Assembly (NCBI GenBank): GCA_002368335.1
Contig: AP018288.1
Span: 1,187,343-1,219,342 of the forward strand
From: Nostoc sp. NIES-4103
GTDB lineage: Bacteria; Cyanobacteriota; Cyanobacteriia; Cyanobacteriales; Nostocaceae
Direction of reading: 5' to 3'
Length of the DNA: 32,000 nt
The position numbers and the translations under genes are program-made. This document shows positions 549 to 15,906 of this stretch, one piece after another (the first letter of the stretch is position 1; each line of letters begins with the position of its first letter). The notes beneath the pieces were generated by a model, which was not told the DNA's origin, searched no databases, and saw nothing but the letters and a program-made list of their open reading frames with translations.

Positions 549-1637
549 TTACCATCCTTGCATTTCTACTAATTCCATACACAATTGATTAATTTGCTCC
601 AAATCAGGTTTGGCAGGTAAGGTTGATTCTTCGTAAACAATTTCCATTTGGGCAACTAAATCTTCTGCCATTTTCATCACTTGTTCATAAGTATACTCAC
701 CCTTAAGGATTGCTCTTAAATCTTCAACATCACCAGCTATCCTTCTGTCTACAATTATCTCCCCTTTCTGCAATATTTCTAGTCCACTGCGTAGCAATCT
801 AATGCAGTGCATTCCATGCTTTAGGTCAAAACCGGACTTTCTTTCCATTTCTGCTCTAGCTGGATTTCTATTTTCTTGCCATGACAAATAAGCTTTCCAT
901 TCTCGTAAAGCTATTTGATAGTTTTGACTTTTCTGTAACAGGCGAATAAAATCCTTACGGCTATTAGTTAACTTTTGAGTGTATTCTAAAGTTTCATCAG
1001 GTAAAGTATATTGTTTCAATACACCTTTAAAATCAATATCTGCCGTCAGCAATTTGTATAATTGTTCAGCTGATTCTAAAAACTCAATTCTTCCTCTAAT
1101 TAAGATATAAAGATACTCTAAAAAAGCATTGAGTTCATCTTTAATTAATGGGGCTTCATCTTCTATGCCAAAATCTGACGGTAGTGGTTTCTTTGACGGG
1201 GGATTTAATAACCACTTGCGATGAGTTTCCATTTTTTTGATTTGAGCAAAAGCATAGCCAGAGTAAGTATGTTTAACCTTCTTACTCAAAAATAGCTTTT
1301 TATGACTAATTAACTTTTGACCGACTGAAGTTAAAACAGGATAGTTATGCAACCACAGCAATTCTAAAACATTAGGATTTGCACCAGATAATAATTGCAA
1401 GATTTTCTTGAGTTCATATATAACTGTATCTTTGTTGTTATCAATAAAAGGAAATATTCCAGGTTCATCCCAACCGCTATCTTTTTGTTCTGTATGATCA
1501 AATCCCAAGTAGTACTTCTTGGGTGCAATGAACACTCCTCGAAAATCAAAATCTGAATCAGGACGGTTTAACCCGTAACCGTGGCTACCTGCTAAACCAA
1601 TCAAAATTGTTCTTTGTTCAACTTCTATTCTTTTCAT
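549..1637 (-). CDS. Pol-beta-superfamily nucleotidyltransferase domain protein (COG3541 / PF10127 RlaP-like, from memory)
   Basis: 362-aa ORF. The N-terminal motif [20 protein letters not shown] fits the GS...DxD minimal nucleotidyltransferase signature, followed by a long helical C-terminal region. Confidence 0.7.
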
Positions 1638-1638
1638 T

Positions 1639-1813
1639 TGGGGATTGGGGATTGGGGATTGGGGATTGGGGATTGGGGATTGGGGATTGGGGATTGGGGA
1701 TTGGGAATTGGGGATTGGGAATTGGGAATTGGGGATTGGATTTTACTATTACCCATTACCCATTACCCATTACCCATTACCCATTCCCCATTCCCCATTC
1801 CCTATTCCCTATT
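1639..1813. repeat. Composite STRR array: (GGGGATT)n, then (GGGAATT) variants, then (ACCCATT)n / (CCCCATT)n / (CCCTATT)n
   Basis: Direct reading. The array occupies the entire gap between the kinase stop (1812-1814) and the nucleotidyltransferase start (1635-1637). Confidence 0.95.
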
Positions 1814-4493
1814 AAGTACGTCCAGCAAGATTGGCTACTACAGCGGCTAATTCGGTGGGATCGACTGGCTTGGGAACATGAAGTTGAAAGCCTGCTAATA
1901 AAGCTTGTGTGCGGTCTTCTGCTCTGGCGTAGGCTGTCAGTGCTACTGCTGGAATTCGTCCTCCTTGCTCTTGGGATAGCGCTCTGAGTTTACGAATTAA
2001 AGCGTAGCCGTCTTCTTCTGGCATACCAATATCGCTCACCAGTACATCGGGGTGAAATTGTTCTAAGGCAACTAGTGCCTCAAAAGCAGATGTAACTGCC
2101 ATCACTTGTGCGCCAAACTGTCCCAGTGCTGTGGTGAGCAACTGACGGGTGTCTGATTCATCATCGACTACAAGCACTCGCAAGCCGTTCAGTGTTGGCA
2201 AACTATTAACATTTTTACCGTCATTGCTCGGTGAAAGCTGCTGTGGCTTATTGATGTTAAAAGCCAAAGCTTTCATGGGCAGATTAACTATAAACGTTGC
2301 CCCCTGTCCAATGCCTGGACTTTCAGCCAAGACTGTACCACCATGCAATTCTACTAGGTGGCGGACGATCGCTAACCCTAATCCTAATCCGCCATGCGAT
2401 CGCGTGGTTGAGCTATCGGCTTGGCGGAAGCGCTCAAACACGTAGGGCAAAAATTCCGGGGCAATTCCCTCTCCTGTGTCGCTGACTCGAATTTGCACGC
2501 GGCTGTCGATTCGCTGTAGTTGTACAGTGACTATGCCGCCTTTGGATGTGAATTTAACGGCGTTGGAGAGTAAGTTCCAGACAATTTGTTGCAGGCGGTT
2601 GGCATCGCCCATCACTACCCCGACAGTAGGGTCAAATCTGCTGTCGATGCGAATTTCTCTAGCGTCGGCTGCGGGACGCACAGTCTCAATTGCTGCCTCT
2701 ACAATTGGTATCAGTTCTAAGGGTTGGGTATTCAGGCGGAGTGTACCGCGAATAATCCGTGAGACATCTAGAACATCTTCAATTAGTTGCGCTAGAGATC
2801 TGCTATTGCGATCGATTGTCTCTAGAGCTTTGGTAGTAGTGGCTTGATCAAATGTACGACTTCTCAGCAGCTGCGTCCAGCCTAGCATGGCGTTGAGAGG
2901 GGTACGAAGTTCATGGGAGAGTGTCGCCAAAAACTCATCTTTCATGCGGTTTGCAGCTTCTGCTGAGGCGCGTGCTGCTTGTTCGCGTTTGAGTAGTTCT
3001 TCCCGTTCTGACTCTGAAACCTTGCGATCGGTAATATCAATCATGAATCCATGCAGTTGCTGTGGTTTACCCTCACTTTGCACCACATTTACAATGTCAT
3101 ACAGCCACACAACTCTGCCATCTGCTGCTAACATTCTGTATTCAAATTCGTAATTATCTAGTGTCAGCGCAGATTCTTGGCAATATTTAACTGCCCATTC
3201 CCGATCCTCTGGATGGATGTGTTCCTCCCAGAAATTAGGGGCGTACCACTCTGTTAAGGTATAACCGAGAATTTCCACAGTTTGCGGCCCCACATAGGTA
3301 AAATTCCCTGTGATAGCATCTACTACCCAAGGAATCACACGTACCTTTTCTGTGAGTTGTCTAAAGCGTTCCTCGCTTTGTTTGATGGCTGCTTCCGCTT
3401 CTTTGTAATCTGTAATATCTTTAATTAAGGCAACAAATCCTTCCACTGTTCCTTGTTGATTGAACTGAGGAACATAATTGACATTCATATAGTGAATTTT
3501 GCCATCTTTATGTGGTAATTCGTGTTCATAGGTTACTTGCTCTCCTGACAAAACTCTTTCTATATAAGGGCGAATTATTTCATAAACTGACTTGTCTACA
3601 ATTTCTTTAATCTGCTTGCCATAACTTTCTGAGGCAGAAACCCCATACCATTCTTCGTATTTTTTATTATTAAAACGGTAGCGTTGCTCGGCATCAACAT
3701 AGGAAATAAAAACAGGCACAGCATCGGTAATTAGTCGCAGTTCCTCTTCTCGCTGGCGCAGAGTTTTTTCCATGCGTTGGCGATCGCTCAAGTCAAGGAC
3801 AAAACCGATAACTTGCTCAGGATTATTTTCTAACAAAGCAAAACCTAAGAGGACAAGTACACGAGTGCCATCTTTTTTGATATATTCTTGTTCAAAAGGC
3901 TGACACACCCCTGTAGATTTGAGTTTGGCAATAGAGCGATCGCTTACCTCAAGATATTCTAATGGTGTCATATCACGCCATCGCACTCGCCCTGCTAGCA
4001 AATCCTCTTGGGTGTAACCTACCATTTTCAGAAAAGCATTGTTAGCTTCAGCGATCGCGCCATTCATATCAGCTACAATCATTCCAATAATGTCGGACTC
4101 TACCAAACGTCTAAACCGTGCTTCACTAGCTTGTAGCTTTTGTATATTCACTTCTAGACACTGCTTAGCAGTGCGTAACTCAGAATTCAGCCAGCTGATG
4201 ATGGTTGCCACCACCACAAAGAAGACTAAGCGCAACTTGCTGTCTAAGCTATGAACAGCAGGCGAAAACACTGGTTCTATAAAAAAGTAGTTAACGGCTA
4301 AAGTAGACAAAAAAGTAGCAGACAGTCCTGCTTCCATACCGCCATACCAGGCGCTAACCGCCACAGCAGCAAAGAAAAGTAGAAAAATTGTTGGTGTGAG
4401 TAGTGACTGTAACAATAATGTTAACAGTAAGGCGCTACCAACAGCCAATACTGTCACAGTGTAGAGCCTGAGTCGGGGGTGTCTTCCTTTCAA
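1812..4493 (-). CDS. hybrid sensor histidine kinase / response regulator with N-terminal membrane domain and about three PAS domains
   Basis: 893-aa ORF with a hydrophobic N-terminus and PAS-like segments. H-box is [15 protein letters not shown] and ATPase boxes are [16 protein letters not shown] and [10 protein letters not shown]. The C-terminal receiver shows [14 protein letters not shown]...[13 protein letters not shown]...HVPKPVD. Confidence 0.93.
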
Positions 4494-4863: not shown

Positions 4864-4940
4864 CCAATTCCCAATCCCCAATCCCCAATCCTCAATCCCC
4901 AATCCCCAATCCCCAATCCCCAATCCCCAATCCCCCAATT
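4864..4940. repeat. STRR heptamer array (CCCCAAT)n ending at the helicase start codon
   Basis: Direct reading of about 10 units: ccaattcccaatccccaatccccaatcctcaatccccaatccccaatccccaatccccaatcccccaatt. Confidence 0.95.
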
Positions 4941-14410: not shown

Positions 14411-15772
14411 CTACTTCCCCATTTCTTCACAAACAATCTGTGCTATTTTCTGGGCTGCGCCGCTTTCGCCACGGACGCTGTGCAGCTTGTTTCGCATATC
14501 GTCTAATTTTTCTGGATGAGCCAAAAAATCTAATACCATTTCTCCCACTTCTTGGGGCTGGAGTTTACCCACAAGTTCCGGCACTATCTCTTCCTGCGCC
14601 CAGATATTCGGCCATGCTAATAAACCTTTGCGTCTCAACACTAGCCAGTTAATCACCTTGGCAAAGTAGGAACCGACCCCTGGTAAATTAGCTAATAACC
14701 CTGGCAAACCATCCCAAGAACGCATGGCGTCAAGTTGTTGCGTCGGGAGCAAAACAATCATGGGCACACCTAAAGCACCGAGTTCAGCCGTGTTTGCCCC
14801 CACTGTAGTCAGACAGATGCAACACTGAGATAATAATCCATAGGCAGGGTTTTCTTGCCATAATTCTACAGATAAGCCCTTCTCTGTTTGCAGCACTGAC
14901 TTCTGTGTGCTTTCCTTTGAGACAATTAAGGAAGCACTATCAAAGCCAAAAGTTTTTACAAAAGGGTTTTTCTGCGGGTCGGCAAAACTAGCTAAAGTTT
15001 GTAAATCCAAAGTTGGGGCGACGGGAATCACAAACTTGGTTTGGGGAATTTTGGCGTGGATGTATTCGGCTATGGCTAAAGTTAATGGCACTCCTTGAGC
15101 TAATTTTGCCGCTTTTGAACCTGGCAAAATGCCGATGATTGGGGACTGGGGACTGGGTACTGGGGACTGGGGACTGGGGACTGGGGACTGGGTACTGGGG
15201 ACTGGGGACTGGGGACTGGGGACTGATGACTGTTGACTGTTGACTGTTGACTGTTGACTGTTGACTGTTGAGTGTTGACTACTAGCTTCTAACATCAAAT
15301 CTCCCACAACTGTGAATTTGTGGGCGTGTTTTTCAGAGACGTTTTTAGCGACTTGTGCTTTCATTACGCCAAAGCGGTCTATCCAGTTATGCCATCTGGC
15401 TTCCCATTCGGCGTAAACGACTGTGCGATATCCCAGTTTTTTACCAATGACTACAGGAAATATTTGATCCCCACCGAGGAAAACCACTACACCGCGACTT
15501 CTCCAATCCCAATTTTCAATAGTCTTACCCCAGAGCAAAAATTTCCAAAAATGCTCAGCAGCTTGAACTCTATCAACTTCCGGGTAAGAACGAGCGATCG
15601 CAGCTTCTTTACCACTAGCATTAGGACAAGGTGACAACACAACAGAAATCCTGACAACAGCACGGTCATCCCCTAATTCTTGCCGCAAAGCCTTTACCAC
15701 AGGACGCACCCAAGTTGTTACCTCTCCAGGCCCATTCGAGAGAATCAGTATATCAAACGGTTGGTTAGTCAT
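14411..15772 (-). CDS. lipid-A-disaccharide synthase (LpxB)-related glycosyltransferase carrying an in-frame heptamer-repeat insert
   Basis: 453-aa ORF. The N-terminus ILILSNGPGEVTTWVRPVVKAL and the overall layout recall the cyanobacterial LpxB-related family. The central low-complexity segment SQHSTVNSQQSTVNSQQSSVPSPQSPVPSTQSPVPSPQSPVPSPQSP is encoded by STRR units. Confidence 0.6.
   Translation of the reverse strand: MTNQPFDILILSNGPGEVTTWVRPVVKALRQELGDDRAVVRISVVLSPCPNASGKEAAIARSYPEVDRVQAAEHFWKFLLWGKTIENWDWRSRGVVVFLGGDQIFPVVIGKKLGYRTVVYAEWEARWHNWIDRFGVMKAQVAKNVSEKHAHKFTVVGDLMLEASSQHSTVNSQQSTVNSQQSSVPSPQSPVPSTQSPVPSPQSPVPSPQSPIIGILPGSKAAKLAQGVPLTLAIAEYIHAKIPQTKFVIPVAPTLDLQTLASFADPQKNPFVKTFGFDSASLIVSKESTQKSVLQTEKGLSVELWQENPAYGLLSQCCICLTTVGANTAELGALGVPMIVLLPTQQLDAMRSWDGLPGLLANLPGVGSYFAKVINWLVLRRKGLLAWPNIWAQEEIVPELVGKLQPQEVGEMVLDFLAHPEKLDDMRNKLHSVRGESGAAQKIAQIVCEEMGK
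15134..15280. repeat. 21 consecutive heptamers (GGGGACT/GGGTACT then GTTGACT) inside the CDS
   Basis: Counted directly: 21 x 7 = 147 nt = 49 codons, so the frame is preserved. Confidence 0.95.
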
Positions 15773-15774
15773 TG

Positions 15775-15906
15775 GTCAATAGTCAATAGTCAATAGTCAA
15801 CAGTCAATAGTTAGTAGTTCCCAGTTCCCAGTCCCCATTGCCCCTTATCCCCAGAGGGCCCCGAGTTCCCCAGTTCCCAGTCCCCAGTCCCCAATCCCCA
15901 ATCCCT
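15775..15906. repeat. STRR arrays (CAATAGT)n then (CCCAGTT/CCCAGTC/CCCCAAT)n
   Basis: Direct reading. The array starts 3 nt upstream of the LpxB-like start codon (15770-15772). Confidence 0.9.

Follow-up and report, generated by a model that had tools for sequence, protein, structure and literature searches.

The gap between a hybrid sensor histidine kinase gene and an RlaP-family nucleotidyltransferase gene in Nostoc sp. NIES-4103 is probably best explained as a pair of abutting heptanucleotide arrays of the STRR type. These arrays would be simple-sequence DNA whose orientation is set by a polarity rule, across which RlaP is reached by read-through and translated from a start that does not depend on a Shine-Dalgarno (SD) sequence, with G-quadruplex (G4) potential as a by-product. 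Positions given below count from the first letter of the window, the whole 32,000-nt stretch of DNA that was analyzed, unless a relative or a genome coordinate is named.

Architecture of the kinase-RlaP gap

Both flanking genes are carried by the minus strand. The first encodes a hybrid sensor histidine kinase of 893 aa (1812..4493; Pfam domains DUF4118, three PAS, HisKA, HATPase_c and a receiver domain), and the second an RlaP-family (PF10127) nucleotidyltransferase of 362 aa (549..1637; Pfam E = 6.9e-25). The kinase stop codon TAA occupies 1814-1812 and the RlaP ATG 1637-1635, and the 174 nt between them (1638-1811) are heptamer array throughout except for an 8-nt centre. On the plus strand, 1638-1739 reads (TTGGGGA)14.6 (array A; Tandem Repeats Finder (TRF) score 183, 95% matches, 0% indels), with GGGGATT repeated perfectly nine times at 1640-1702, on the RlaP-start side. 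The 8-nt spacer ATTTTACT follows at 1740-1747 (sense strand AGTAAAAT, containing a weak -10-like TAAAAT), and 1748-1814 holds 9.6 further units (array B; TRF score 92, 95% matches, 0% indels), namely five copies of ATTACCC, two of ATTCCCC and two of ATTCCCT. On the strand sense to both genes, array B starts within the kinase stop codon, sharing two nucleotides with it, and runs as AATAGGG twice, AATGGGG twice and AATGGGT five times, so that nine G-runs lie on the mRNA or non-template strand. Array A reads (AATCCCC/AATTCCC)n up to the RlaP ATG on the same strand, with 14 G-runs in the (GGGGATT)n of its template. The predicted order in the mRNA is stop codon, (AAUAGGG)2 (AAUGGGG)2 (AAUGGGU)5, AGUAAAAU, (AAUCCCC/AAUUCCC)14 and AUG.

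The sequence-only reading had described the gap as array from end to end at 1639-1813, with the downstream ATG 1-3 nt away and a strand bias that flips halfway. The composition stands, save for the 8-nt centre, and so does the flip, with the plus strand G-rich over 1638-1739 and C-rich from 1748. The ends had been placed off by 1-2 nt, and the ATG does abut the array, at a distance of 0-2 nt. The gene ends that define the gap are conserved. The kinase C-terminus and stop position are shared with three other genomes (Amazonocrinis nigriterrae, G001, and the genomes G002 and G013), RlaP aligns over residues 1-362 with the orthologues of 17 relative genomes (16 from other genera, plus the same-genus G002), and the same MKRI... 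start codon is found at all 80 of 80 further orthologous RlaP loci. The arrays are thus truly intergenic.

Mazel et al. reportedly described the STRR sequences of heterocystous cyanobacteria in 1990, in J Bacteriol 172:2755 (as cited in PMC2670836). The STRR1 consensus is CCCCA(A/G)T, and the sense strand of array A, (AATCCCC)n, matches it as a rotation of CCCCAAT. The kinase-RlaP arrays are a typical example of STRR repeats, a class long known in filamentous cyanobacteria. They are head-to-tail tandems of 7 nt, dispersed (142 arrays of the AATCCCC/GGGGATT class in this genome) and mostly non-coding, and what they share with the original STRR sequences extends to the (CCCCAAT)n of array A on the gene sense strand, more than 100 dispersed copies, an intergenic position and a Nostocaceae host. 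The one difference, that the AATGGGN units of array B are related to the three original STRR consensus units and yet lie outside them, touches nothing essential.

Similar arrays occur elsewhere in the window. A second STRR1, (CCCCAAT)10 on the sense strand at 4864-4937, stops some 7 nt short of the likely ATG (4945) of an XPB/ERCC3-like helicase gene; the spacer is divergent and includes (TGTCAGT/TTGTCAT)n and a C-rich 8-mer array as well. Further along, 15140-15280 carries a long (TGGGGAC)12 followed by (GACTGTT)8, and 15766-15905 carries (TAGTCAA)6 and (TCCCCAG)5, on the 5' side of an ORF at 14411; the longest ORF called there traverses the (TGGGGAC)12 + (GACTGTT)8 pair.

Abundance and polarity of heptamer arrays across the genome

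The genome of this member of the Nostocaceae (8.59 Mb, 41% GC, two contigs) contains about 3,100 period-7 arrays, with 3,874 period-7 TRF rows that span 140 kb and comprise 326 unit types. Perfect arrays of at least three units number 1,387 for period 7, as opposed to 9, 2 and 0 for periods 5, 10 and 11. Arrays of period 7 are far above chance, yet the kinase-RlaP pair is not special in its genome. Perfect arrays of period 9 (214) and period 8 (98) are enriched as well, at levels far below that of period 7.

With gene calls that are ORF-based (stops exact, starts approximate and shifted past arrays), 93.5% of array bases fall outside called genes, against a coding fraction of 76%. Among spacers of 40-1000 nt, at least one array is present in 37-42% of those between co-directional or convergent genes and in 31% of those between divergent genes. 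Spacers made up of array to 80% or more are distributed quite differently, at 47 of 2,878 co-directional, 32 of 928 convergent and 1 of 888 divergent spacers. Arrays thus seem to be kept out of the sites where promoters must sit, and the near absence of array-filled spacers between divergent genes indicates that they act like spacer that is transcribed, rather than like promoters.

The orientation of the arrays is strongly constrained. Among G/C-skewed arrays that lie within 30 nt after a stop codon, 369 have a G-rich sense strand and 22 a C-rich one. In the 30 nt that precede a start codon the balance is 170 C-rich to 11 G-rich sense strands; this class of 0-30 nt is somewhat favoured by construction, unlike the after-stop class and the G-then-C order, which are unaffected. 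Where a spacer holds both kinds of array, the G-rich one precedes the C-rich one in 168 cases and follows it in 5, and this is seen in all four classes of gene orientation. The G-rich (more generally, G/T-rich) strand therefore runs 5' to 3' away from the nearest gene, whichever way that gene is oriented, and the mid-gap strand flip at kinase-RlaP follows this genome-wide rule. Units that cannot form a G4 show the same polarity, with ratios of 170:13 for AGGAGTT, 119:14 for CGTAATT, 67:7 for GTCATTT and 65:5 for GTCAGTT. So strong a polarity (about 94%) is unexplained by neutral slippage and implies that selection or some directed mechanism is at work.

Part of this pattern has been seen before. 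Nostoc sp. [quoted passage not shown] 2015, PMC4692102). The arrays described here carry the identical unit GGGGATT, of which nine perfect units are consecutive where Rehm et al. counted runs of at least two, and both positional biases are present at kinase-RlaP; arrays inside operons are likewise a feature of PCC 7120. In contrast to the few paired (inverted) repeats in PCC 7120, paired arrays in G-then-C order are found in 168 spacers of the present genome. The two studies also differ in that G4 formation was measured there on oligonucleotides and is predicted here from the sequence.

The sequence-only reading had centred on G4 potential, and the sequence rule it invoked does hold many times over on the plus strand. 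Counting G-runs of at least three, the gap has 14 on the plus strand and 9 on the minus strand, so that the canonical pattern is satisfied on both strands, in opposite halves. With the two genes encoded by the minus strand, it is the template (antisense) strand that carries the (GGGGATT)14 run; the mRNA reads (AAUCCCC)n at this place, while the sense-strand G-runs belong to the weaker GGG-type units 3' of the kinase stop. A DNA G4 in the (GGGGATT)14 template, an RNA G4 in (GGGUAAU)n, or both, might pause or block RNA polymerase or ribosomes and so set the kinase:RlaP ratio. Apart from the many matches to the canonical pattern, such a switch could draw on the chemistry of the unit, for which a circular dichroism (CD) assay has been in print since 2015: (GGGGATT)4 and (GGGGATT)3GGGG form antiparallel G4 structures, the latter with a T1/2 above 95 °C in 100 mM KCl, and the complementary (AATCCCC)4 adopts an i-motif at pH values up to 6.5 (PMC4692102). 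Potential quadruplex motifs are also abundant, with 2,360 in the genome as compared to 28 in a Markov-1 simulation (∼80-fold). However, heptamers incapable of forming a G4 obey the placement and polarity rules equally, which means that G4 potential is not the shared property and argues against G4 as the explanation of the class. The RlaP-proximal arm in the congener G002 consists of TTACCAA/TTGGTAA, without any G-run, and together with the non-G4 heptamers of this genome it makes G4 unlikely to be the property that matters. Rehm et al. identified no regulatory role and could assign no function to the GGGGA(C/T)T repeats (PMC4692102), and a G4 in duplex DNA has to compete with a fully complementary strand. 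A G4 switch at this locus is accordingly judged quite improbable. What survives of the G4-prone reading is the capability itself, carried by a known class with about 3,100 arrays in the genome and not by a locus-specific device.

A polarity that is independent of gene orientation could also reflect dedicated machinery, with a specific protein that makes, maintains or binds the arrays. One candidate would be an Avd-like four-helix-bundle protein of the PF05635 family, since three of the seven PF05635 genes lie in the loop of exactly complementary G...C arms and a fourth lies between non-complementary G...C arms, set against a baseline of 12% of genes with arrays on both sides. Nevertheless, exact-complement arms also enclose four ordinary genes (Dak2, a hydrolase, RNase III and one unknown), and no PF05635 gene is present at the kinase-RlaP locus. 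Directional growth would predict cleaner units at the gene-proximal end of an array, and the two ends did not differ in unit purity (85 vs 77 arrays, Wilcoxon p = 0.41). The association of PF05635 with arrays is suggestive but not relevant to the kinase-RlaP locus, and a dedicated heptamer system appears to be a very unlikely source of the arrays there. The three loops around PF05635 genes (annotated as 23S rRNA-intervening-sequence/Avd-like; G000:C1:2160168-2160518, 4353251-4353607 and 7516589-7516984) have the arms AGTTAGG...AACTCCT, GTAATTC...AATTACG and TGGGAAT...CCCATTC, and their G...C order is the opposite of the C...gene...G usual for array-flanked genes.

The two strands of the arrays do differ in the predicted folding of their RNA. 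The RNA of the gene-entering strand is predicted to be free of structure for 20 of 26 unit types, that of the gene-leaving strand is predicted to be structured for 20 of 26, and the reverse is never found. The start- and stop-codon content of the main units, compared by inspection, does not separate the two strands. At kinase-RlaP, the polarity rule would leave a G-rich (AAUGGGN)9 tract trailing the kinase mRNA and place a structure-free, SD-free (AAUCCCC)14 leader before the RlaP AUG.

With a G-rich array followed by a C-rich one, the two arms might also pair with each other in a read-through transcript, and the resulting RNA hairpin could terminate or attenuate transcription, protect the 3' end of the kinase mRNA, or couple or uncouple translation. 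Such pairing has a precedent of sorts. The genes hupS and hupL form one transcription unit. An STRR hairpin-forming sequence lies between them in several filamentous cyanobacteria, and STRR hairpins have been proposed to act in transcript stability or translational coupling (PMC2670836). As in the hupS-hupL spacer, the gap between two co-oriented genes is occupied by heptamer repeats with the capacity to form a hairpin. The hupSL operon is conserved and functional, whereas the kinase and RlaP became neighbours recently and within one genus, and the pairing of the arms between them is imperfect. The minimum free energy predicted for 1620-1830 (minus strand) is -68.9 kcal/mol, with a z-score of -2.4 relative to shuffles. 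The genome-wide 168:5 preference for G-then-C order would suit pairing, as would the sub-threshold Rfam matches to hairpin models of the miRNA type; no Rfam model was found at the gathering threshold, and the matches were to miRNA-precursor models only, at 25-40 bits as opposed to gathering scores of 50-135. The arms are nonetheless not complementary, their units differing at two of seven positions, and this is not peculiar to the locus: adjacent G-rich and C-rich arms are exact reverse complements in only 2 of 172 pairs, whereas 21.4 would be expected from re-pairing. Lone arms show the same polarity as paired ones, and the orthologous spacer of G002 folds worse than its shuffles (z = +2.7). 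No intrinsic terminator was detected on either strand in 1400-2100, where the long imperfect stem has no U-tract. These observations weaken a hairpin terminator in particular, and a functional hairpin of any of these kinds is thought unlikely. Exact-complement neighbours are so rare that long, perfect palindromes with a short loop might seem to be avoided or removed.

Proposed expression of RlaP across the arrays

RlaP has a dN/dS of 0.07-0.08 relative to its two congeners within the genus, so it is under purifying selection and must be expressed. The claim that the gap holds neither a conventional promoter nor a ribosome-binding sequence was upheld: a consensus scan of 1400-2100 returned no sigma-70-like promoter, and the 20 nt 5' of the RlaP ATG, CCCCAATCCCCAATCCCCAA, contain no SD-like sequence. 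The latter is unremarkable, because an SD-like 4-mer precedes only ∼25% of ORF-called genes in this genome. Folded by itself, the RlaP leader RNA has a predicted energy of 0 kcal/mol. Arrays next to start codons are known from other systems. In PCC 7120 the recO start codon is overlapped by a heptamer array (bioRxiv 10.1101/2022.06.06.494920), and heptamers of the TAACTGA type lie a few nucleotides before start codons, replacing the SD sequence, in Beggiatoaceae, Cyanobacteria and Bacteroidetes, where they have been proposed to act in translation, with S1, Csp or CsrA as candidate binders (MacGregor 2015, PMC4679880). Array A resembles the TAACTGA repeats in its sense orientation, in abutting the start and in the absence of an SD sequence. 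It differs in its unit, AATCCCC, and in being accompanied by a second array of opposite polarity behind the preceding stop.

RlaP has orthologues in Nostoc, Nodularia, Aulosira and similar genera, and the closest named relative of the strain is A. nigriterrae CENA67 (Nostocaceae). The kinase and RlaP are adjacent only in this genome and in G002, that is, in two of the three species of the genus, so the pair is not a conserved operon. The G002 spacer measures about 250 nt and consists of (GGGGAGT/GGGGAGA)n after the stop, (TTACCAA)16, alternating TTCCCAA/TTACCAA and a 19-nt non-repeat leader. Compared across these spacers, the unit of the RlaP-proximal arm seems to have shifted by single-base steps from TTACCAA through TTCCCAA to TCCCCAA, in which case the G4 potential of that arm would seem to be new in this species. 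Unit turnover within the genus is rapid, as judged at the species level. In A. nigriterrae, which is the nearer relative, the kinase and RlaP occupy separate contigs and differ in their flanks; 3' of the kinase there are a six-unit G-rich array and a GC-rich insert, and 5' of RlaP there are TTACCAA remnants. In another genus the kinase is followed by a plain hairpin, with no array. An exact search of metagenome contigs for the array junction gave no match, and a scan of genome contigs yielded other species only.

The GC-rich insert has a counterpart in the window. Immediately after the RlaP stop (391-545), a TTGGGAA/TTGGTAA array is split by a GC-rich insert of about 125 nt that contains GTAGCGTTAGCGAC, and the related element of A. 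nigriterrae (L002:2345-2480) lies 3' of the short heptamer array that follows the kinase stop. This placement suggests that the insert may be a small mobile element that targets heptamer arrays.

Upstream of RlaP, other Nostocales carry a different sequence. Perfect period-7 runs of three or more units are absent from the 400 nt upstream of the gene at all 80 orthologous loci, and about 55 of these loci (by visual count) share a 48-nt element, CACCTGCTTAACTCATGAGTTAGGATGACTATATTTTAATCAGGTGAT, right before the ATG (e.g., L040:1453-1500). The element comprises a 16-bp perfect palindrome, TTAACTCATGAGTTAA, flanking CACCTG/CAGGTG inverted repeats and, after the palindrome, a -10-like TATATT, and by these features it looks like an operator and promoter for a regulator. 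At some loci a four-codon uORF, ATG-GCT/GCA-ATA-TTT-TAA, is an alternative reading of the element. The element is absent from this genome, where a search for a relocated copy of the palindrome returned only matches with two mismatches at unrelated places.

Promoters in cyanobacteria often lack a -35 box, so the 8-nt centre could supply one through its TAAAAT. RlaP might then be transcribed alone, from the centre or from array B, with an (AAUCCCC)n leader of about 100 nt, and the arrays would serve as an insulator towards the kinase gene. Beyond the position of TAAAAT in the middle of the gap, this alternative is consistent with the lack of a functional link between the kinase and RlaP, with their synteny in two species only, and with a leader that would be fully unstructured if it began there. 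It has to be weighed against the consensus scan, which matched no promoter, against the divergent gaps, which must hold promoters and are array-filled in just 1 of 888 cases, and against the disappearance of the conserved ancestral promoter-like element. An internal promoter is, on balance, hard to favour and is regarded as unlikely.

Given the lack of a promoter match in the gap, the loss of the ancestral element, the purifying selection on RlaP and the single array-filled divergent spacer among 888, we infer that RlaP is reached by read-through, with SD-independent initiation. In this model, the arrays would grow, shrink and switch unit via slipped-strand events and concerted evolution, and RlaP would now be transcribed from the kinase gene across them. 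Its translation would start independently of an SD sequence on the unstructured C/A-rich leader. The formation of G4 and i-motif structures, chemically possible as published for the unit, would be incidental rather than a selected function.

Meaning of the array pair and of its orientation

As a single locus, the kinase-RlaP gap matters little, being a textbook STRR array pair; its wider interest lies in the rule that it follows. The departure of the G/T-rich strand from the gene, the placement of G before C (168:5) and the avoidance of exact complementarity between close arms might together amount to an orientation code, imposed by dedicated machinery or by a general function at the RNA level. 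In the latter case, the arrays might supply a structure-free, SD-free leader to one gene and a structured, GU-rich trailer to the other in a phylum that is Rho-less. Such a code is put forward tentatively and is considered rather unlikely. Were it true, an array would have replaced the ancestral promoter/operator of RlaP and rewired the gene under the transcription of a sensor kinase. The counts reported here yield testable predictions on STRR function and do not amount to a solution. The placement of an array over a promoter/operator-like element that is kept across Nostocales would provide a concrete case in which the expansion of simple-sequence DNA has rewired gene expression.
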